From Bacteroidales bacterium (GTDB taxonomy: Bacteria; Bacteroidota; Bacteroidia; Bacteroidales; WCHB1-69), in the NCBI GenBank assembly GCA_031553535.1, contig JAVBLM010000019.1, forward strand, positions 154,128-218,127: a stretch of 64,000 bases of DNA, in the 5' to 3' direction. The notes under the pieces are model-generated. The model searched no databases. It was given only the letters and a program-made list of their open reading frames with translations, and was not told the origin of the DNA. The position numbers were made by a program, and so were the translations under genes. Below, in pieces: positions 2,899 to 64,000 of the stretch (its first letter is position 1; each line of letters starts with the position of its first letter).

Positions 2899-3345
2899 CG
2901 GATATACTTTCACCGTATTGTGAAAGTGTTTCGACAGTAGTTTTCATACTTTCACGAAGTAGTGAAAGTATGCCGACAGCAGTTTTCATACTTTCGCAAG
3001 GTAGCGAAAGTGTGCCGACAGTAGTTTTCATACTTTCGCAGGGTAGCGAAAGTGTGCCGACAATGGTTTTCATACTTTCGCAGAGTAGTGAAAGTATGCC
3101 GACAGCAGTTTTCATACTTTCGCAGAGTAGTGAAAGTACGCCGACAGTAGTTTTCATACTTTCGCAGGGTAGTGAAAGTATGCCGACAGCGGTTTTCATA
3201 CTTTCGCAGAGTAGTGAAAGTACGCCGACAGTAGTTTTCATACTTTCGCAGGGTAGTGAAAGTATGCCGACAGCAGTTTTCATACTTTCGCAGAGTAGTG
3301 AAAGTACGCCGACAGTAGTTTTCATACTTTCGCAGTATTATGAAA
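2899..3345. repeat. tandem array A: 42-bp unit x ~10.6, each unit with a 9-bp-stem hairpin
   Basis: The unit is GTTTTCATACTTTCGCAGRGTAGTGAAAGTAYGCCGACAGYA. The anchor TGCCGA occurs at 2971/3013/3055/3097 and onward, exactly 42 apart. The inverted repeat is CATACTTTC/GAAAGTATG. Two unit subtypes alternate in the right half, giving an 84-bp higher-order repeat. The edge units are degenerate. Confidence 0.95.
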
Positions 3346-14167: not shown

Positions 14168-14451
14168 TCCGTCTATTTTATAGCTATAAAAGGATTTTAA
14201 CAGCCTCCGGATTGTTATCTCTTCCGGCATTACGCTTGGCTTAACAGGAGTTGCGCAAGTTGATAATTTACACAAAATTATAATTTAGTTGTTGAATTGT
14301 TTATCGTTTACGGTTTACACGTTTACTTCTTGTTGGTTTATCTATTTTATTGGCTTTATCCTTTCTGCCTTCTGCATGTTATTTATTCTCTACACGACTT
14401 CATGCCTACCAATGAAAGAGATTGTATTTCGTTCTGAATAAACCTCTTACC

Positions 14452-14516
14452 GTCATGCTGAACTCGATTCAGCATCCCCTTTTTTTAAGGGGGTTGCGGA
14501 TCAAGTCCGCAATGAC
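14452..14516. repeat. stand-alone copy of the 64-nt four-way-junction (cloverleaf) module
   Basis: The sequence is GTCAT-[GCTGAA CTCGA TTCAGC]-[ATCCCC T7AA GGGGGT]-[TGCGGA TCAAG TCCGCA]-ATGAC. The same module occurs at 17070-17136, 55363-55426 and 55788-55851. Confidence 0.85.
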
Positions 14517-14700
14517 GCTCCTGACAAACAAATTACTGTCATCTTCTCGCTGTTTGATATTTCTCATTGGATATTCGCCGTAATGCGTTTCTGTTAATTC
14601 GGTGCATAACTCGTCATTTATAATTCGTAATTCGTAATTTCTTTCTGCTTGCTGCAATTGTTACCTGTAACTTGTGTGATTTCTGAAAAACTATTACAGA

Positions 14701-15144
14701 TTATTTTTTCTTTCTTTTCCTGACGCGATGCCCCCATTCGGACGGATAGCATTTATGTATCCGGTAAAAGAATTGGGAAAAAGAAACAGCGGATGAAAAA
14801 TTCAGCTTTTTACTGATTTCGGCTATTGGTAAATCCGTTTTTTCCAATAGTTCACAGCTTGCCAGGTCTAGATATCCACATATCCATTCCCGGGCTCCTA
14901 TTCCTGTCATTGCCACAATCGCTGATGAAAAAACTATTGCATCCACACCCATCATTGAAGCGTATCTTTGTGATTGTAAATTACCATATTTATGGATAAG
15001 CTGTGCAAAAAGGTTAATAAAATCATTTCCCGTAAGGCGGTTGCCATTCAATTGGGGTAATCCATCCCTGTTAACAGTAATAGAAGAATCAAGTATCGTA
15101 ATAAACACATCGGAAGGAAGGATTTTCTTGTATTTTGTTTCCAT
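14701..15144 (-). CDS. small AraC-type helix-turn-helix protein (DNA-binding domain only)
   Basis: 147 aa. The C-terminal ~100 aa (LLEKTDLPIAEISKKLNFSSAVSFSQFFYRIHKCYPSEW) fits the AraC/XylS HTH. No recognisable sensor domain is present. Confidence 0.6.
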   Translation of the reverse strand: METKYKKILPSDVFITILDSSITVNRDGLPQLNGNRLTGNDFINLFAQLIHKYGNLQSQRYASMMGVDAIVFSSAIVAMTGIGAREWICGYLDLASCELLEKTDLPIAEISKKLNFSSAVSFSQFFYRIHKCYPSEWGHRVRKRKKK

Positions 15145-15302: not shown

Positions 15303-15492
15303 TTAATGCCGGATATTCAAGCATTAAATATATGTAATAAAAGTTAATGTCAGATATTCGGGCATTAAATATATGTGATAAAAGTTAATGCCGGATATTC
15401 AGGCATTAAATATATATGATAAAAGTTAATGTCAGACATTCAGGCATTAAATATATGTGATAAAAGTTAATGTCAGATATTCGGGCATTATA
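15303..15492. repeat. tandem array F: 41-bp unit x ~4.6 with 8-bp-stem hairpin
   Basis: The unit is TTAATGYCRGAYATTCRGGCATTAAATATATGTGATAAAAG. The anchor TTAATG occurs at 15303/15344/15385/15426/15467. The inverted repeat is TTAATGCC/GGCATTAA. Confidence 0.9.
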
Positions 15493-15953
15493 TATATTAA
15501 AAATAGTTGTAGGAAAATAAATCAATATCCGGGACCTTTTATCTTTTATCCTATGAAAACAAATCAAGGCCGGGAATCTATTGTAGATTATTGCCGGCCA
15601 TTATCTGCTTTCAGGGGATAAATGTTCATTTACAGTATAAAATCAAAATATAACTTCATATCAATGGCGATGTTTTCTTTATTATTTACAGAAGTTATGC
15701 AAGATATAGAAATGATGATTAATTCAAAATCCAAGGAGAAGAATTTAAGAAAAATCTGCGGATACCTGCGAAATCTGCGGGAAAAATATTCAGTGAATAA
15801 TGAATAATGAAAAGTGAATGACAAATAAATCCCCTCAACTCCGCAACCTCGAATCCCGAACCTCAAATCTTGTATTAATTTTTATTTTTTAAAACAATTC
15901 TTTCACTGATTTGTTAATAAGTCTGTAAATATATTTAATAAAATATTCATATT

Positions 15954-16956: not shown

Positions 16957-17225
16957 GAACTTGTCAAAAGTTGATATAAAATAAATAGAGATTATCTCAC
17001 TTCGTTTGATGTACTCATCTGCTTCGGGTTCGGGTGCTTTGTCGTTCCTCCTCACAGTGGCGGAAGTGCGTCATTGCGGACTCGATCCGCAATCCCCTCA
17101 ATAAAGAAGGGGATACTGAAACAAGTTTAGCATGACGGTAACAGGTTTGCTCATTGCGAAAAACGAAGCAACAGAGCTTGCAAGCTCAACGGAGTTAATC
17201 TCCTATCTCAACTTTTGACAAGTTC
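16957..17225. mobile_element. MITE-like element copy 1 (269 bp) with 18-bp terminal inverted repeats
   Basis: Left end GAACTTGTCAAAAGTTGA (16957-16974), right end TCAACTTTTGACAAGTTC (17208-17225). It carries the four-way-junction core at 17070-17136 and has no coding capacity. Confidence 0.8.
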
Positions 17226-17355
17226 GCAGATAAAAATACAGAAAAAAATCATTAACTGACAACTAATTACGAACGACTAAGTCTTATTTTGAAGTACCGG
17301 AAGTGCTGGAATCGCAAGGGTTCAACTTGGATAACTTCTGTTAATTATTTTTATG

Positions 17356-17832: not shown

Positions 17833-17968
17833 AGTATAGTGGTTAATGGTTAGTTGTCAGTGATTAGTGTTAACTGCAAATTTTATATTAATTCTTAATT
17901 CTTAATTCTTAATTTCTTAGCAATGACGCTCTTTCGTTTGTTCAGCGTTAATAACTAACCACTAACAA

Positions 17969-19921
17969 CTATTTCCACTCTGATTTCAGATTATCCAATT
18001 GGGTAGATAATTTTTCCCATTCACTTACCGCTTGTTCCAAAGCCAGTTGATGATCTTGATATTGCTTATATAATTCACCGGAAGCAATTTGTTGCTGATA
18101 ATATTCAACGTCGGATAATTTATCATCCAACTGCTTTATTGCCTGCTCCAGGTTATGAATTTTACTTTCCTGGGTTTCAATCTGCTTTTCCAGCTTCCTG
18201 AATACACTATCCCTCTGTTTTTGTTCCTCCCAGGATAGTTTTTTATCTTTCTGCTCTTCTCTGTTTACTGAATTTATTTTTGATTGCTTGACTTCCAGGC
18301 TCTGTAAAGACTCCAAGTTCCGTTTCTCAATATAGTAACTGATATCGCCGATATATTCTTTAATATTCCCATCTTTAAACTCAAATACTTTATCTGTCAA
18401 TCCCTGTAGGAAATCACGATCATGTGAAACCAGTATCAATGTTCCGTCATAATGCAAAAGGGCATTTTTGAGAACATCTTTCGAACGCATATCCAAGTGA
18501 TTTGTCGGCTCATCCAGAATAAGTACATTATAGGGATGTAACAACAACTTGGCCAATGCCAAACGAGCTTTCTCTCCACCGGATAAAACCCCTACTTTCT
18601 TTTCTATATCATCACTGTCAAACAAAAAGCTACCCAAGATTCCCCGTACTTTGGTACGCATATCCCCTACCGCTATATCATCAATGGTTTCAAATACCGT
18701 TTTTTTCGGATCCAATAATGCATTCTGGTTTTGTGCATAATACCCTACTTTTACCATCGATCCTATCTTAAGATTTCCGGAAGTGGGCTGTAATTCCTGA
18801 TGCAGCATCCGGATAAGCGTGGTTTTTCCCTCACCGTTCCTTCCGACAAAAGCTACTTTTTCTTTCCGCTGAATAACAAAGTCCAGATTCCGTAAAATCG
18901 GTTTTACACTGTATGTTTTACATAGATTTTCAGCTTCAAATATAACTCTGTCTGCCGAAGGAGCAGGTGCAAATAGGAAATGAATATGGGAAGTATCCAG
19001 ATCATCTATTTCAACAATCTCCATTTTCTCCAATAATTTTATCCTGCTCTGAACCTGTTTTGCCTTGGTTGCTTTATAACGAAAACGTTCTACAAATTTC
19101 TCTATATCGGCAATTTCCTTTTGCTGATTTTCGAAAACTGATTTCTGATGCTCTATCCGTTCCGACCTGCGGTTTACATATTCCGAATAATTACAGTTAT
19201 AGTCAACAATTGCTCCCAATGTTATCTCAACCGTACGCTTACAGACTTTATCGAGGAACATTCTATCATGCGAAACCAAAATAACAGTACCTGAATAGGT
19301 CTGTAAAAACGATTCCAACCATTGAATGGATTCTATATCCAGATGATTTGTCGGCTCATCCAAAAGAATAATTTCCGTTTTGCGAAGCAAGATTTTTGCT
19401 AATTCCACACGCATCTGCCAACCACTGCTGAACTCACTCAAACTACGTTCAAAGTCAGTCTTTTGGAATCCCAGTCCAAGCAATACCTTTTCTGCTTCCG
19501 AATCTATATTATTTACATCCAGATATGTATATTGATGATTCAAATCTGCCAACCGCTCTAATAACTTGGCATAATGAGGAGACTCATAATCCGTAGTTTC
19601 TATTATTTCCCGATTTACTTCTTCAAGTTGTTTTTCAAGGTTGCGAATTTCAATAAAGGCGGTCATTGTTTCTGCCCATACTGTTTTGTCCGTATTTATC
19701 CGCATCTCTTGAGGCAGATAACCAATCCTGTGGCCGGAAGTAATAACTATCGTTCCTGTTTCCGGTAATAATTGTCCGGCTAAAATATTCAACAAAGTGG
19801 TTTTCCCGGCACCATTCTTCCCTACCAGCCCAATTCTATCATTGCCTCCAATAACAAAACTAACTTTATTAAATAAGTCTGTGCCCGTAAAATGAACCGA
19901 GAGATTGTTTACTGTAATCAT
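17969..19921 (-). CDS. ABC-F family ATPase (two ABC cassettes, C-terminal coiled coil)
   Basis: 650 aa with Walker A GKNGAGKTT and GRNGEGKTT, signature LSGGEKARL, Walker B ILLDEPTNHLD and LILDEPTNHLD. It has no TM domain and a Lys/Glu/Gln-rich coiled-coil tail. Confidence 0.88.
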   Translation of the reverse strand: MITVNNLSVHFTGTDLFNKVSFVIGGNDRIGLVGKNGAGKTTLLNILAGQLLPETGTIVITSGHRIGYLPQEMRINTDKTVWAETMTAFIEIRNLEKQLEEVNREIIETTDYESPHYAKLLERLADLNHQYTYLDVNNIDSEAEKVLLGLGFQKTDFERSLSEFSSGWQMRVELAKILLRKTEIILLDEPTNHLDIESIQWLESFLQTYSGTVILVSHDRMFLDKVCKRTVEITLGAIVDYNCNYSEYVNRRSERIEHQKSVFENQQKEIADIEKFVERFRYKATKAKQVQSRIKLLEKMEIVEIDDLDTSHIHFLFAPAPSADRVIFEAENLCKTYSVKPILRNLDFVIQRKEKVAFVGRNGEGKTTLIRMLHQELQPTSGNLKIGSMVKVGYYAQNQNALLDPKKTVFETIDDIAVGDMRTKVRGILGSFLFDSDDIEKKVGVLSGGEKARLALAKLLLHPYNVLILDEPTNHLDMRSKDVLKNALLHYDGTLILVSHDRDFLQGLTDKVFEFKDGNIKEYIGDISYYIEKRNLESLQSLEVKQSKINSVNREEQKDKKLSWEEQKQRDSVFRKLEKQIETQESKIHNLEQAIKQLDDKLSDVEYYQQQIASGELYKQYQDHQLALEQAVSEWEKLSTQLDNLKSEWK

Positions 19922-25049: not shown

Positions 25050-25072
25050 ATTTATTATCATCAACAAATCGA

Positions 25073-25113
25073 GTAGGAAGAAAACAAAGTAGTTTTCTTC
25101 CTACTTTCGTTTT
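25073..25113 (+). terminator. rho-independent terminator of the zinc-ribbon gene
   Basis: 13-bp perfect stem GTAGGAAGAAAAC / GTTTTCTTCCTAC with a 6-nt loop, followed by TTTCGTTTT. Confidence 0.75.
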
Positions 25114-25203
25114 CCGACCTCTCACACCACCGTACGTGCCGTTCGGCATACGGCGGTTCCTTACTTACGATACAACTTTACGATAACAATCCATCAGAAA
25201 TGG

Positions 25204-25542
25204 CTAGTTGGCTCGTTTGAGATTATCGTTGCTCAAGGCACGACTAAGAATAAAACTATGGGCAATATGCCAATAACCCTTGCGGGTATTAGCCCATTCC
25301 CACGCCTTTCTCTTATCAATACCACAGCGTTTGAGATTCTCAAAGCGGGTCTTCACTCTCTTCCAGCATTTCCAGATACACATACGGAGCCTGCTCCTAT
25401 ACCATTCATTCAATGTTTGAAGACGGTTCTTCATATCTGCCAGCTTGAATACTTCAAGCCAACCCAGTATAAAGGAGCCAAGAGAGCTTTTACGCTTCCC
25501 GTAGCCCAGACCGTTACTACGACCGGTCAATTCCTTTTGCAA
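25204..25542 (-). pseudogene. group II intron reverse transcriptase/maturase, C-terminal (X/maturase) fragment only
   Basis: The 112-aa ORF FILGWLEVFKLADMKNRLQTLNEWYRSRLRMCIWKCWKRVKTRFENLKRCGIDKRKAWEWANTRKGYWHIAHS matches the conserved C-terminus of bacterial intron-encoded proteins. The ~300-aa RT palm/fingers region is absent. Confidence 0.8.
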
Positions 25543-25618
25543 GAATACTATTTTTCCCCTTCTTATTTATCCTTTCATTTTCTTATTATCCTGAAAACTT
25601 TACCGGTTTCGCAGGAAA

Positions 25619-25921
25619 AAGAAAATATTTTACTGTTTGGGATAGACATTTTGGGGGAATCTGAAAACATTTTGCCATTTAGTTTGGATATTTTCAGAAG
25701 ATCCGAAAGCAACAAACCATTTGGTTTGGACGTTTCGGAAGATCCGAAAGAAGCAAACCATTTGGTTTGGACGTTTCGGAAGATCCGAAAGAAGCAAACC
25801 ATTTGGTTTGGACGTTTCGGAAGATCCGAAAGAAGCAAACCATTTGGTTTGGACGTTTCGGAAAGACCCGAAAGAAGCAAACCATTTGGTTTGGACGCTT
25901 CGGAAAGATCCGAAAGAAGCA
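25619..25921. repeat. tandem array B: 41-bp unit x ~7 with nested palindrome, inside the intron remnant
   Basis: The unit is GATCCGAAAGAAGCAAACCATTTGGTTTGGACGTTTCGGAA. The anchor ATCCGAA occurs at 25701/25742/25783/25824. The outer inverted repeat is TCCGAAA/TTTCGGA and the inner palindrome is CAAACCA-TT-TGGTTTG. The leftmost units are degenerate. Confidence 0.92.
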
Positions 25922-26528
25922 TCTATATTATATCGAATATTAAGATAAGTTATGAATGATTTTTCCGGAGAGGTTTATTCTTTATTAATGTCCTATCAGA
26001 ACACTTATCAAACAGGCAGGCCTATATCTGTGAGAGACACACTAAGGGGGATATTATCCGTACTTGAAAAAGTCTCAATTTATACCCCGAACTCACATTA
26101 CAATAAGGTTCTGTCCTTCAATACTTGGTAAGGTTCCTGCTGTACATTTTTTTTCATGGGCAGGCTTGTGTCCGTATCTACTATGGCATCGGCTGACTTC
26201 TCACAGCAAGCTTTATACTCCGTGCTTCCGAAAAAAAACATCCGCACGTCTGTGAGACCTCCCCAGTTAAGATTCTATTCTTTCCATCTTATACCTGCTT
26301 GATTTACCATGAACGTTCCCAATAGCTATGGGGCTTTGTTTTGTTTAGCAAACGATCCCACATTCTTTGGCCTTATATCAAGTTTCTGTGCGTCAGGCCA
26401 GATGTTTGCCGCTGACTTCCTTCAGATTCCTTCTCGCGATAGACACCCTTGTCGTTGGCTATACTCTTCCCGCTATCTGGGCGTGTTTAGGACTTGCACC
26501 TGTTAGAATAAAACCATGCTGAACGAAC

Positions 26529-41771: not shown

Positions 41772-42521
41772 TTATAAATTCGTAATTGAATCATTCTCCT
41801 CCCTGTTCTTTCTTGCGGCAACCCATCCCCTGCGTTGAACGATAAGGTATTTGTAATGTTCGATATGGATATTGTGTTCTTTGGCAAACGCAAGATAGGC
41901 AGCTTCTCCCTCCACGATCATCAAAACATCGATACATTTGATAAGAGTCCGGTAAGCGGCATCTATTTCCTTTCGGACGGTTTTCATCCTGAGGCCGGTT
42001 TTTCCCGTTGATTCGAGCGCACGCTCTTTTTTCAATTCCTCGAATTGCCCATTACAGGAATCCAGTTCTCTGATCCAGTCTTCCAGGCCAATCCTTGACG
42101 CATCTGCGGCATATTCCCCATTGAGATCCTGTATCAGGTCATAAATGGCTATCGTTTCCTTGTCATACGGTTTCTCATAAATTTTTCCATAGGTATCGAG
42201 AAGTATCTGCAACCGGTTAGCAGCCTGAGCCACATCCTGATCGAAATGATAGCTATATGCTTCCACTAAGAGGGTTAAACCGCGGGCAAGACGATCCCGT
42301 GCAGCATCCATTTCCGCCAGCAATGGGGTAAATGAACTTTTGAAAATCAACTTGAGGCATTCATCTTCCTTCTCGTAACTGGGAAGATACAACTCCTGCA
42401 ACGGCACATCGATTTTCAAGGCCAGGGCAGTATGCTCCCGAACTAAATTCAAAAATAGGGTTTGGAACTGGAAATGTTCTTCGTTGTGAAGAGGAATCAA
42501 GTCTATGTTTTTGATTTTCAT
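41772..42521 (-). CDS. hypothetical protein (all-helical; possibly a Bacteroidota DUF family)
   Basis: 249-aa ORF with coding-like composition and no repeats. I see no catalytic motif and the family was not identified with confidence. Confidence 0.55.
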   Translation of the reverse strand: MKIKNIDLIPLHNEEHFQFQTLFLNLVREHTALALKIDVPLQELYLPSYEKEDECLKLIFKSSFTPLLAEMDAARDRLARGLTLLVEAYSYHFDQDVAQAANRLQILLDTYGKIYEKPYDKETIAIYDLIQDLNGEYAADASRIGLEDWIRELDSCNGQFEELKKERALESTGKTGLRMKTVRKEIDAAYRTLIKCIDVLMIVEGEAAYLAFAKEHNIHIEHYKYLIVQRRGWVAARKNREENDSITNL

Positions 42522-42617
42522 ACTAAATGTTTTTTATACTATTCATACTAAAAGGAGAAAAGTCAAAGGGGAAAAGGAGAAAAAAATTACCGGCAGGCGT
42601 TCAAACTTCATTATATC

Positions 42618-42850
42618 CATCCTTCCGGCCGCCTGCCAACTTTGAGAAGTTGCCGGGTTCCTGTTTGAGATTGAAAACAACCTTCCAGGAGTTCCTGGAT
42701 TCCTGTCTGGGTTTTCCAACAGGCTTTTCCGCACGTGGTATTCCCTGTTTGGACTTTCAAACAGGTTCCCAGGAGTTGCTGGATCCCTATTTGGAATTGA
42801 AAACGACCTTCCGGAAGCTCCTGGATCCTCGCCCGGAATTGAAAACCGGT
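42618..42850. repeat. tandem array C: 42-bp unit x ~5.5 (inverted relative of array D)
   Basis: Anchors at 42660/42702/42744/42786/42828 are all 42 apart. Units contain the palindrome CCAGGA-GT-TCCTGG and a TGTTT..AAACA hairpin. The reverse complement of unit 42660-42701 matches array D unit 54696-54737 at 31/42 positions by hand alignment. Confidence 0.85.
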
Positions 42851-42979
42851 TTTTAAGGCGTTTGAAGCCTTTCAGGAGGATTGGCAAAACACATTCCGGC
42901 CTTCTGGAGCGGTTGCCGGTAAATCCGACATGCCTTTCATGGCCGAAAACACGTTTGCCGGAGGCGGACAATAAGCGGT

Positions 42980-43022
42980 TGTAAAAGAAAAACCTCTTTC
43001 CATAAAAAAGAAAGAGGTTTTC
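42980..43022 (-). terminator. strong hairpin terminator (minus-strand orientation)
   Basis: 12-bp stem AAAACCTCTTTC / GAAAGAGGTTTT with a 9-nt loop. On the minus strand it is followed by TTTTCTTTTAC. Confidence 0.6.
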
Positions 43023-43261
43023 CTGTAATAATTGTAATATCTTCATGATCCGGTTCCGGCAGTAACCGGCCACTATCCGCCGGGAATGGCATTTTGTCCG
43101 GCTATATACAAGTAAAAAATCCCTGTAAGGAAAGAAATGAAGACCTTCCCCCATCCTTTTCTCAAAATTTAGAAGATGATGTTGCCTGTTTGCCGGTGTC
43201 ATATAGGGTTCCATTTAAAATCTTTTCAAGATATATTAAATCACATGCATGATTTTGCCTG

Positions 43262-50941: not shown

Positions 50942-51290
50942 GATCGAAAGCCATGCTGATGTCCCTTTCTGATTCACGTTAATTTAGCGACAGAAGTTAT
51001 ACAGGCTATACAAAATTACAGGAAGTCATAAATAATGGTGAATGATTAATGATAAATGGTTAATTCCGCTTTTTGTTTTCTTCCTTTTCAACTGTCTTTT
51101 TATTATTAATTAGTAGCTGAATATATTTTTTCCGCCAATCTCCCGGATTTTTCCCTGAATCTTACATTTTGAATCTTGAATTTACCATTAATCACTATTT
51201 CTATAACTTGTGTAACTTCTTATAACTTGCGCAACTTCTATCGGCGAAGAAATATTTTTCCGGATTTACGCTTTGTAAAGAGAGAAATGG

Positions 51291-54446: not shown

Positions 54447-54654
54447 TTGAGAGGATTTAACGTTACAAATTCAAGATTCAACGTTCAAGATTATAAATAA
54501 TTTTTCTGCATTTTATCTATTTTATCTGCTTTATCTGCTTTATCGATTTTATCAGTTTAATTTTTCCCGCAGACCCCGCAGATTTTCCGCAGATTTTTTA
54601 TTGTAAAATTCGCATTACTAATTCTTAATTCTTAATTTTTAATTCTTAATTCTC

Positions 54655-55150
54655 CAGAGCAGGCGTTCAGATGCCTTAGATACCTGCTTGCAATTCCGGA
54701 CAAAGGTTCAGGAACTCCTGAATACCTGTTTTCAATCTCAGACAAGTATCCGGGAAGTCTCGAAACCCTGTTTCCAGTTCCGGACAATGGTTCAGGAAGC
54801 CCTGGAACCCAGTTTGAAAATTCAAACAAGGAATACAAAAGGGGAAAAACCCTGTTTAAAAATCTAAACAGGGAATATCGCAGATGGAAAACCCTGTTTG
54901 AAAATCCAAACAAGGAATTCCACAGGAGGAAAACCCTGTTTGAAAATTCAAACAGGTAATACCATGACAAAGACTGCCTGTTTGAAAATCAAAACAGGAT
55001 TCATTACGGCAAAGACTGCCTGTTTAAAAATAAAAACAGGGTACATTACGACAAAGGCTGCCTGTTTAGAAATAAAAACAGGGTACACTATGACAAAGGC
55101 TGCCTGTTTGAAAATCAAAACAGGGTCTGTTGCAATGGAAAGAACCGGGA
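54655..55150. repeat. tandem array D: 42-bp unit x ~11.8, two diverged sub-families in one strict register
   Basis: CCTG anchors at 54683, 54725, 54767, 54851, 54893, 54935, 54977, 55019, 55061 and 55103 are all multiples of 42 apart. The right-hand units are GCCTGTTTGAAAATCAAAACAGG+19 nt (inverted repeat CCTGTTT/AAACAGG). The left-hand units carry the palindrome TTCAGGA-AC-TCCTGAA. Confidence 0.93.
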
Positions 55151-55207
55151 CAAAACCGTTTGCCCGTATTCCTTTTTCTTTCTTTTGCCTTTTCTGTTTT
55201 TTACTTT

Positions 55208-55500
55208 GAACTTGTCAAAAGTTGACACAAGAATCGATCTTTTGTCAGGGATTATCTCACTACGTTTCGATGCTCTCACCTGCTTCGCGCTCGGGTGCCA
55301 CGTCGCTCGTGCCTCATTCCTGCCTGACAGAGATCAGACCTCGCTCTTAATAACATATTGCCGTCATGCTGAACTTGTTTCAGCATCCCCGTTTTTAAGG
55401 GGATTGCGGATCAAGTCCGCAATGACGCTCTTAACTAATATATTACCATTATCATTTGCGATGAACGAAGTAATCCCTTAAATCAACTTTTGACAACTTT
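55208..55500. mobile_element. MITE-like element copy 2 (293 bp)
   Basis: Left end GAACTTGTCAAAAGTTGA (55208-55225), right end TCAACTTTTGACAAC (55483-55497). The four-way-junction core at 55363-55426 is inverted relative to copies 1 and 3, while the left subterminal arm (TTATCTCACTAC..GATGC.CTCACCTGCTTCGCG) keeps the same orientation. Confidence 0.78.
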
Positions 55501-55649
55501 TTTATAAAAACAATATAGCGAAAGGAAGAAATCAATCAAGAGAAAGGGAAAGATTTTTCTCTTTTAAGTTAGCCGGGTATTTTTCCGACGCCTCATTATA
55601 GGGCTTAACCATTTTAATATTGGCTTTTGCAAATCTCAATAAAAAATTA

Positions 55650-55657
55650 TACTTTTG
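55650..55657 (+). promoter_or_regulatory. candidate -7 promoter box (TACTTTTG) upstream of MITE copy 3 and the antiporter gene
   Basis: Matches TAnnTTTG. MITE copy 3 starts 17 nt downstream, and the next plus-strand gene starts at 56120. Confidence 0.35.
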
Positions 55658-55673
55658 CAAGTAATCATATAGT

Positions 55674-56009
55674 GAACTTGTCAAAAGTTGATATAAAATG
55701 AATAAAGGTTATCTCACTACATGTCGATGCACTCACCTGCTTCGCGTCCGGATGCTTCGTCGTTCCTCCTTACAATGGCGGAAGTGTGTCATTGCGGACT
55801 TGATCCGCAATCCCCTTAAAAACGGGGATGCTGAAACAAGTTCAGCATGACGGTAGCAGGTTTATTCAGAGCGAGAACCGAAATCCGAAGGATTCGGTAT
55901 AGCCAACCACCCGAGCCACGGAGTGTAGCGATTGCATCGACACGTAGCGAGATAACCGAACTTGCGAGCTCAATGGAGTTAACCTCCGGTATCAACTTTT
56001 GACAAGTTC
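55674..56009. mobile_element. MITE-like element copy 3 (336 bp)
   Basis: Perfect 18-bp terminal inverted repeats (55674-55691 and 55992-56009). It has ~30-bp subterminal inverted repeats (GGTTATCTCACTACATGTCGATGCA / TGCATCGACACGTAGCGAGATAACC) and the core at 55788-55851. Confidence 0.82.
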
Positions 56010-62469: not shown

Positions 62470-62855
62470 TTCCCCCTGTAACATCTGTATAAACCTTTCC
62501 GAGAACTGGGACACCTATAAACGAGAGTAAATATATCTTTCCCAGAATTGGGACACCTATAAACGAGGATAAATATACCTTTCCCAGAGTTGGGACACCT
62601 ATAAACGAGGATGAATATACCTTTCCCAGGATTGGGATACCTCTAAACGAGAGTGAATATATCTTTCCCAGGATTGGGATACCTCTAAACGAGAGTGAAT
62701 ATATCTTTCCCAGGATTGGGATACCTCTAAACGAGGATAAATATACCTCTCCCAGAGTTGGGACACCTCTAAACGAGGGTGAATATACCTTTCCCAGGGT
62801 TGGGATACCTCCAAACGAGAGTGAATATATCTTTCCCAGAGCTGGGAAACATTCA
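62470..62855. repeat. tandem array E: 42-bp unit x ~9 with short palindrome
   Basis: The unit is CTTTCCCAGRRTTGGGAYACCTMTAAACGAGRRTRAATATAY. The anchor TCCCAG occurs at 62540/62582/62624/62666/62708/62750/62792/62834. The palindrome is TCCCA-GAAT-TGGGA. Confidence 0.93.
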
Positions 62856-63122: not shown

Positions 63123-64000
63123 ATGAGAAAATTAATGATTGTGCTCTATATATTCTCTATAGGACATATTGCATTTGCCCAGGACGCATATTGGGTATTC
63201 TTCACTGATAAAAATAACACTTGTTTTGACCCTTTCAGCTATTTCGATTCTTATGCGATAGAACGAAGAATACAAAATAATATCTCACTATACGATTCGA
63301 CCGACTTTCCTCTAACATCCTCATACGTGGAAAAAGTAACTCTTTTAGCGGAAGAAGTTTTGGGAGAAACCCGATGGTTCAATGCCCTTGCTATCTTTGC
63401 CACAGAAGAAAATTTTTTAAAGATACAAACCTTCCCTTTTGTAAGAGAAATTGTTCCTATACGTTCATCTCTTATGCTTTGCCAATACCGTGATCTGATA
63501 AGTGAACAAGAAGTTCCTGTGAGCAATAACAATATTGATTCTTCCAAAACCATTTTTGCATCAGCCCAGGTACAACGTATGGAGGGAGACTCGTTTATTG
63601 AAAAAGGAATCGATGGAAAAGGAATCCGCATTGCTGTTTTTGACGGAGGATTTCCGGAAGTAGATACGCATATTGCTTTCGAACATTTACGGAAAAACAA
63701 CAAGATTATCAAAACATGGAATTTCTGCAACAAAAAAGAAGACGTATATGGTTACAGTTCTCACGGAAGAATGGTTCTTTCATGTATTGCCGGCATAAAA
63801 GGCAATCAAAAGCTAGGGCTTGCAACCGGAGCCGAATTCCTATTAGCCAGGACAGAAGTCGAGATAGAACGATACAAGGAAGAAGTATGGTGGCTAATGG
63901 CTGCAGAATGGGCAGATAAAAACGGCGCCCATATTATTAACAGTTCTTTAGGATATGGTGGGGAACGTTATTATCCATCACAGATGGATGGAAAATACTC
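63123..64000 (+). CDS. S8 family serine peptidase (subtilisin-like), partial (continues beyond window end)
   Basis: Absent from the ORF track because there is no stop. Manual translation from ATG 63123 gives MRKLMIVLYIFSIGHIAFAQ (signal peptide), then GKGIRIAVFDGGF (catalytic Asp motif) and SSHGRMVLSCIAG (catalytic His motif), and the frame is open to the window end. Confidence 0.75.
   Translation, partial: MRKLMIVLYIFSIGHIAFAQDAYWVFFTDKNNTCFDPFSYFDSYAIERRIQNNISLYDSTDFPLTSSYVEKVTLLAEEVLGETRWFNALAIFATEENFLKIQTFPFVREIVPIRSSLMLCQYRDLISEQEVPVSNNNIDSSKTIFASAQVQRMEGDSFIEKGIDGKGIRIAVFDGGFPEVDTHIAFEHLRKNNKIIKTWNFCNKKEDVYGYSSHGRMVLSCIAGIKGNQKLGLATGAEFLLARTEVEIERYKEEVWWLMAAEWADKNGAHIINSSLGYGGERYYPSQMDGKY

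Follow-up and report, generated by a model that had tools for sequence, protein, structure and literature searches.

The centromere of the F plasmid, sopC, consists of twelve 43-bp repeats, each with an inverted repeat, and kindred arrays are found in R1 parC and in iterons. Type III toxin-antitoxin (TA) loci are a second class of gene-linked array, and have been searched for as a tandem array of 31-62 nt repeats upstream of a stand-alone open reading frame (PMC3401426). Repeat lengths in the described families are 31-62, 40-48 and 39-57 nt, and a toxIN variant with its array downstream of the gene is known (PMC3401426). Within the Bacteroidota, the BrickBuilt MITE of Porphyromonas gingivalis has terminal inverted repeats and an internal minisatellite of 23-nt units, and is present in 19 near-identical copies per genome (PMC4596501). 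We compared these systems with two arrays of 42-bp units, C and D, located in a 64-kb stretch of a Bacteroidales contig (64,000 nucleotides, hereafter the window). The explanation that we favor, with a probability of roughly 60%, is that both arrays derive by descent from cassettes built around a DUF6261 gene and that the array would be the partner of the DUF6261 protein.

Array C (about 42640-42890, minus strand) and array D (54683-55144, plus strand) lie about 12 kb apart in opposite orientation, and a first-pass annotation of the window had described them as inverted homologues. Formal alignment bears this out. Smith-Waterman comparison of the reverse complement of 42500-42900 with 54640-55230 gave a score of 74, whereas dinucleotide shuffles scored 21.3 ± 2.7 (z 19.6) and none of 300 reached the observed value. 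By self-blastn, 42702-42872 matched 54872-54702 collinearly (69% over 173 bp, E 7e-9), and the best C-D match, 42702-42765 against 54956-54893, was 83% identical over 64 bp (E 5e-11). The offsets of all blastn matches differed among themselves by multiples of 42; the register print and the unit matrix agreed with them, in support of the annotation's claim that divergence had preserved the 42-bp register. Identity between in-register units reached 35/42 in the unit matrix, compared with 10.8 ± 2.8 and a maximum of 22 for shuffled units, and positions in the non-palindromic linkers also agreed between C and D. Homology in the direct orientation was considered and rejected as the weaker of the two (score 35 versus 74; best unit 27 versus 35 of 42). 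Some direct signal is present because the units are palindromic, and it could be taken to favor chance or convergence of simple palindromes in both arrays. The shuffle controls rule that reading out, and the collinear 173-bp match, the shared linkers and unit identities well above the null maximum speak against it too.

Individual units could be paired between the two loci. The C unit at 42765 matched D units 54809-54935 at 30-35/42, and the C units at 42849, 42807, 42723 and 42681 matched D units 54683-54767 at 20-29/42, with 25-29/42 in 10 of the 12 pairs. Two unit subtypes are therefore common to both arrays, which indicates that the ancestral array was already heterogeneous, with at least two subtypes, when it was copied. 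Judged by these alignments, C and D go back to a single hairpin-repeat array of 42-bp units, copied in inverted orientation and since diverged. The unit pair that had been cited as an example, 42660-42701 with 54696-54737 at 31/42, is real, but its D coordinates were 9 nt off: as given, the two segments agree at 11/42 ungapped, whereas the reverse complement of 42660-42701 matches 54705-54746 at 32/42, and both motifs named in the annotation are found at that pairing.

The gene at 41772-42521 (minus strand, 249 aa) belongs to family DUF6261 (Pfam PF19775; 142 bits against a gathering cut-off of 27, E 1.9e-41) and is preceded by array C. Its start at 42521 directly adjoins the C flank, in line with the earlier description. 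Moving outward from the gene, all on the minus strand, the locus comprises a gene-proximal flank that is T-rich on the gene strand (42522-42639, assigned by homology to contig L009, see below); an array core of five 42-bp units (42640-42849; register print, nhmmer, and a unit matrix of 25-35/42 against D); a degenerate edge unit or leader (42850-42891; 20/42 against the D unit at 54641), in a region where blastn matched 42759-42882 to 54773-54648; and a distal flank (42892-43031, homologous to L009 1-82). The distal flank contains a terminator-like hairpin (arms, 42979-43000 and 43010-43031), after which the minus strand has a T-run. The array has five to six units, with minus-strand unit starts at 42849, 42807, 42765, 42723 and 42681, and ends about 118 bp before the ATG. 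It is degenerate, with unit identities of about 60-70%. All five core units carry the dyad CCTGTTT-N8-AAACAGG, and four of the five carry a second dyad, TCCAGGA-AC-TCCTGGA.

Between array C and the gene lies a sigma-70-like sequence (TTGGCA-18-TATAAT, 42639-42610), called with an E. coli-type consensus. Among the loci examined, a promoter-like site between array and gene was seen at C only, and a search for Bacteroidota-type promoters (TTTG...TAnnTTTG) was uninformative. A 16-nt inverted pair, 81% complementary, brackets C at 42587-42602 (TTACCGGCAGGCGTTC) and 42907-42922 (GAGCGGTTGCCGGTAA). No equivalent bracket was found around D, and in a test of 16 loci such bracketing complementarity was inconsistent (Fisher P 0.056). 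The idea that the arrays are enclosed by terminal repeats or by a long-range stem was rejected on this ground.

Array D carries eleven 42-bp units of three subtypes (54683-55144, plus strand; TRF, register print, unit matrix). Units at 54683-54808 have two dyads, as do four C units; those at 54809-54934 resemble the C unit at 42765; and those at 54935-55144 form a third, locally homogenized subtype. On the left, homology to C ends at a degenerate edge unit (54641-54682, plus; blastn, register print, unit matrix), and leftward of 54641 lie heptamer repeats unrelated to the distal flanks of C or L009. On the right, a bulged hairpin and, after it, a T-rich tract (55145-55207, plus) are retained from a gene-proximal flank, as judged by homology to L009, and no gene follows. 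A MITE copy at 55208-55493, identified by self-blastn and by reading its terminal inverted repeat (GAACTTGTCAAAAGTTGA), abuts and truncates this flank. Self-blastn thereby confirmed the MITE terminus that the annotation had placed at 55208. No DUF6261 remnant was detected beside D by tblastn, and a hand-spotted resemblance of 55494-55673, after the first MITE, to the start of the L009 gene was not significant (z -0.9) and was discarded. D is best described from these comparisons as an orphan, gene-less partial copy, in which the array and some 70 bp of the flank next to the gene survive, up to a MITE.

The MITE family, recognized by its terminal inverted repeat (GAACTTGTCAAAAGTTGA) and its internal core (GTCATGCTGAACTTGTTTCAGCATCC), has copies at 55208-55493, 55674-56009, 16957-17245 and 14400-14536, of which the first two are inserted between array D and a Na/H exchanger gene. 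Heptamer tandem repeats are abundant in intergenic DNA (54469-54653, 17837-17971, 14299-14639, 15794-15819 and 51033-51183); examples are TAATTCT x 5 at 54619-54653 and TTAATTC x 4.4 at 17888-17919, and similar forms return at several loci of the window. A replication origin between C and D was considered and rejected, as there was no DnaA-box cluster and the AT-rich gap contains, by eye, an HU-like ORF. The GC-skew plateau between the two arrays is explained by gene orientation.

The likeness claimed earlier between the purine-rich flank of C and the flank of D was not significant for the quoted segments on their own: this exact pair gave z 1.2 against composition-matched shuffles (139/1000, p about 0.14), and the longer gene-proximal flanks, with D represented by 55125-55207, gave a weak signal (z 3.3, 10/1000). 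Homology of the flanks is supported transitively through L009, a contig (Logan, SRR23967709) that comes from the same sample. It encodes P0002, a paralogue with 65% identity to the 41772-42521 product, and has an array of 42-bp period at 188-426, 107 bp upstream of its DUF6261 gene. D 55125-55207 aligned to L009 414-534 with a score of 43, compared with 17.8 ± 3.1 for shuffles (z 8.3, 0/1000), and the C gene-proximal flank aligned to the same segment with z 5.7. The distal flank of C, including the hairpin at 42979-43031, aligned to L009 1-82 with a score of 77 against 17.4 ± 2.3 (z 25.6). The D distal flank matched neither that of C nor that of L009. The L009 array showed no similarity to arrays C and D (z about 0), and no homology was found between paralogous cassettes beyond the gene stop codon.

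L009 shares both flanks of C, and homology ends at the stop codon, which argues that the unit of duplication was the cassette. On these alignments C is part of a DUF6261 cassette of about 1.3 kb, consisting of the distal hairpin flank, the 42-bp array, the T-rich flank and the gene. Comparison within the cassette family further shows that the array is replaced far more rapidly than the flanks and the protein: cassettes of paralogues have flanks in common but unrelated units, and the 41/42-bp period and the dyad symmetry alone are kept.

In the earlier reading of C and D, whole array-bearing elements had been dispersed and had then diverged locally. A block of array and gene-proximal flank is indeed shared inversely by the two loci, as that reading has it, but we consider it highly improbable that the block is an autonomous, MITE-like mobile element. 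An array with one flank in common at two oppositely oriented loci would fit such an element, a minisatellite inside a MITE has a precedent in P. gingivalis BrickBuilt (PMC4596501), and real MITEs are active next to D. Against this, the arrays lack terminal inverted repeats or a consistent bracketing stem, the distal flank is not common to C and D, and there are two copies only in 64 kb. A profile built from 16 units (nhmmer) matched C on the minus strand and D on the plus strand and nothing else in the window, so solo units are absent there; coverage of the source genome consisted of the window and two paralogue contigs. A search of 185,579 species-representative genomes for CCTGTTT-N8-AAACAGG-N20-CCTGTTT returned seven chance matches and no related array. 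Sampling of the source lineage is poor: beyond the source genome, the nearest U32 peptidase has 54% identity. Finally, 41/42-bp arrays of unrelated units go with a single gene family in distant organisms, which a mobile non-coding element would not give. As arrays of this kind precede DUF6261 genes elsewhere, gene-linked paralogy explains the pattern better than independent dispersal of an element. Within the window, C would then be the intact and D the orphan copy of a gene-linked cassette, and not a new mobile element.

The linkage between gene and array was examined across the family in 21 loci from a DUF6261 alignment scan of metagenome contigs and in further loci from exact-protein look-ups. 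In this sample, which is biased to relatives with two conserved peptides, 19 of 25 DUF6261 loci had a TRF-called array of period 41 or 42 located 47-261 bp before the ATG. Periodicity of 41/42 bp within 450 bp upstream was found in 14 of 19 non-redundant loci (z 5 to 21.6, 0/200 shuffles), with the best lag between 20 and 63 being 41 or 42 in each of the 14, versus 1 of 15 downstream control regions. The period was 41 or 42 in all DUF6261-linked arrays found. The units themselves, by TRF and register prints, were wholly different between unrelated loci, and copy number varied between related loci with a shared unit (3.1 versus 4.1, and 3.2 versus 4.8, by TRF). No array was present at 5 of 20 DUF6261 loci. 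At locus L021 a 42-bp array of 2.2 copies (2407-2498) lies about 150 bp downstream of the DUF6261 gene and not upstream.

The cultured strain Prevotella nigrescens FDAARGOS_1486 encodes a homologue with 26% identity, preceded in the same position by a 41-bp x 4.5 array, and the 100 kb around this gene contained no other 41/42-bp array. The gene is part of the cargo that a conjugative transposon carries, with restriction-modification and AbiE genes as neighbors. Two human-gut contigs were examined; one had a TRF-called 42-bp array upstream of its DUF6261 gene, and the second weak lag-41 periodicity only, a figure that comes without a shuffle control. On this evidence an upstream 41/42-bp array of its own accompanies the majority of the DUF6261 genes examined, and this holds down to a protein identity of 26%. 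A near-invariant hairpin array before most members would be a first functional handle on DUF6261, and the association can be tested in P. nigrescens, a cultured human oral species. In a full-text literature search we found no paper on the function of DUF6261 or on its 41/42-bp arrays, nor any report of the association.

In NZ_CP082843.1 (P. nigrescens, locus L039) the array spans 416305-416487, and the RefSeq start of the DUF6261 gene, 416420, falls inside it; alignment of the protein suggests that the true start is near 416579. The arrays would accordingly be a repeat class that misleads start-codon annotation. Just upstream, at 415729-416165, is a separate 120-bp x 3.6 tandem repeat that overlaps two annotated small ORFs. 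Several short-read contigs end at array D or a short distance upstream of DUF6261 genes. An independent Logan/ENA contig (L038) ends at the start of array D, about 54641; L008 starts 23 bp upstream of the P0003 gene, and L036 and L037 start 96 bp upstream of their DUF6261 genes, with the regions beyond lying outside these contigs. Arrays of 41/42 bp probably fragment short-read assemblies and so hide their own prevalence.

Four other hairpin arrays of the same period occur in the window without a DUF6261 neighbor. One (2920-3335, 42 bp x 9.9) has no DUF6261 gene beside it; the second (15303-15497, 41 bp x 4.8) precedes an AraC-type HTH gene (14701-15144, minus strand) at a distance of 158 bp; the third (62489-62847, 42 bp x 8.5) stands 278 bp before a gene on the plus strand whose start is at 63125; and the fourth (25675-25921, 41 bp x 6) is in a group II intron (25068-26443, minus strand). 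Rfam placed D1-D4 of this intron at 26272-26443 and D5/D6 at 25068-25158. The intron is ORF-less, having no space for a maturase, and its array occupies the expected place of domain IV. Window arrays A, B, I and E showed no similarity to C or D, and no repeat with a period of at least 20, more than about two copies and an unrelated period was found in the window. With four such arrays lacking a DUF6261 neighbor, the period may reflect a more general process.

These four arrays, one of them inside an intron, are the kind of observation expected if the arrays were neutral or structural minisatellites with no cognate binder. C and D would then be related by descent only, with hairpin DNA slipping in steps of about 42 bp or hairpins acting generically, as an mRNA 5' stabilizer or a cruciform. 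Free variation of unit sequence under a persisting period and dyads, the differences in copy number between related loci and the degeneracy of C all agree with this reading. We nevertheless think it improbable, because it leaves unexplained why, in the 100 kb of P. nigrescens examined, the one 41/42-bp array lies upstream of DUF6261, why the same holds in each metagenomic locus of about 2-7 kb, and why the period stays constant among proteins as little as 26% identical. Since array sequence is locus-specific and the DUF6261 gene is the sole constant neighbor, the simplest reading is a partnership of cognate protein and repeat.

DUF6261 proteins are single-domain and of about 245 aa; the family comprises 5,652 clusters at 50% identity. 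Relatives of the 41772-42521 product were an identical protein, P0001, and the paralogues P0002 and P0003. The AF2 model has ten helices and no strands (pLDDT 86), the proteins are acidic to neutral (pI 5.1-7.8), and an N-terminal H-x-E-E-H is conserved. No significant match was obtained in PDB, BFVD, PHROGs, PADLOC or NCBIfam, with no PDB fold at E < 0.3, and neither Pfam, the AF2 model nor the PDB fold search revealed an HTH, RHH or winged-helix domain. Gene neighborhoods vary between loci, and there are several paralogues per genome. In the window, the genes near arrays include DUF6261, tRNAs, a transporter, the U32 peptidase and the Na/H exchanger.

Dyad symmetry was enriched in the unit consensuses (Fisher P 1.7e-9, 19 arrays), and in C and D together the CCTGTTT-N8-AAACAGG stem was paired in 86.6% of cells. 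No compensatory pairs were found in the C and D unit stems. Stem mismatches on the gene strand showed no asymmetry (27 G-T versus 21 A-C), folding energies (MFE) of sense and antisense strands were mixed, and the purine skew of the arrays was weak. No Rfam family matched the arrays in the window or in 11 loci; with mixed MFE and no compensatory pairs, a known RNA family or strand-specific RNA structure was rejected. A strict hairpin-plus-T-run terminator on the sense strand between array and gene was present in 2 of 20 loci, C not among them; C and D have bulged or long-loop inverted repeats only, followed by T-rich tracts.

The main rival is a type III TA-like RNA module, which we regard as unlikely. 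There, the array would be transcribed with or ahead of the gene, and its 41/42-nt hairpins would bind, neutralize or be processed by the DUF6261 protein; arrays would co-diversify with each paralogue for cognate neutralization, and D would be an orphan antitoxin array. Much of the architecture is as such a module would have it: an array upstream of a stand-alone ORF with a repeat length within 31-62 nt, which fits the published criteria (PMC3401426), cassettes in variable contexts with several paralogues per genome, the P. nigrescens copy among mobile cargo next to restriction-modification and AbiE genes, one locus with a downstream array as in the known toxIN variant, and arrays that diverge faster than their flanks. 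The protein, however, is all-alpha and acidic, unlike ToxN, CptN or TenpN; the strict terminator is confined to the two loci mentioned; there is no excess of G-U over A-C on the sense strand and no consistent sense folding advantage; and a period of 41-42 is far more rigid than those of the known families (31-62, 40-48 and 39-57 nt).

Action at the level of duplex DNA is favored by the spacing of four helical turns, the dyad sites, the lack of strand bias, the absence of an Rfam match and the rarity of a strict terminator, as well as by the promoter-like site at C and the sister array before the AraC-type gene. We therefore offer, tentatively and at somewhat less than even odds, the proposal that the array and the adjacent DUF6261 protein are cognate partners, the array acting as duplex DNA. 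Each unit would be one dyad-symmetric site, and as 41-42 bp corresponds to four helical turns, all sites would lie on one face of the DNA. Such same-face sites could load a cooperative protein array upstream of the DUF6261 promoter, the outcome being autoregulation of DUF6261 or a centromere-like nucleoprotein complex. The site sequence would co-diversify with each paralogue, avoiding cross-talk, and D would be a set of orphan sites for the DUF6261 protein of the C locus. Several findings speak against this proposal, namely that DUF6261 has no recognizable DNA-binding domain, a pI of 5.1-7.8 and no database matches, that 5 of 20 loci have no array and one has it downstream, that four window arrays have no DUF6261 gene, that promoters were called with an E. 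coli-type consensus, and that the flanks of C and D, compared directly, are only weakly similar.

A broader claim, rather doubtful at present, is that the DUF6261 gene and its 41/42-bp hairpin array form a previously unrecognized two-part protein/repeat system that is widespread in Bacteroidota. This system could be a new repeat-RNA/protein family of type III-like design with an unrelated, all-alpha protein, or an array on the chromosome that resembles a centromere or operator. In the most radical form, the H-x-E-E-H protein could itself build or resize the arrays with a 42-bp ruler; were that so, it would also explain the orphan 41/42-bp arrays across the source genome.

In architecture, the closest described systems are, by analogy, the type III TA loci and the plasmid centromere or operator arrays such as F sopC. 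DUF6261 loci resemble ToxIN, CptIN and TenpIN in having a repeat array directly upstream of a stand-alone gene, repeats that differ between homologues, variable and often mobile contexts, and several copies per genome (PMC3401426). They differ in that the protein is all-alpha and acidic, and not an endoribonuclease of the ToxN/AbiQ, CptN or TenpN type, in the lack of a consistent terminator between array and gene (2/20), and in a period fixed at 41-42 with up to 10-11 copies, any transcription or processing of the array being putative. BrickBuilt, like C and D, is a spacer-less intergenic tandem repeat of Bacteroidota, with dispersed copies that have leader and tail flanks (PMC4596501), but the unit of C and D is 42 bp and not 23, they lack terminal inverted repeats, the window holds these two copies, and the class to which they belong is linked to a gene. 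CRISPR and REP/BIME clusters share with C and D palindromic repeats at regular spacing. Unlike CRISPR, however, the units of C and D abut head to tail, without unique spacers or nearby cas genes, and unlike REP/BIME, unit sequence is locus-specific and not that of one genome-wide REP family. Compared with plasmid centromeres, DUF6261 loci have no ParA/ParB/Rep-type partner and no recognizable DNA-binding fold, and are single-gene cassettes on chromosomes or in ICE cargo, in which binding is putative. The likeness to plasmid centromere and operator arrays would lie in direct repeats that each hold a dyad site, in a period close to an integral number of helical turns, and in an array that adjoins the gene of its putative binder, with a site that co-varies with the protein.
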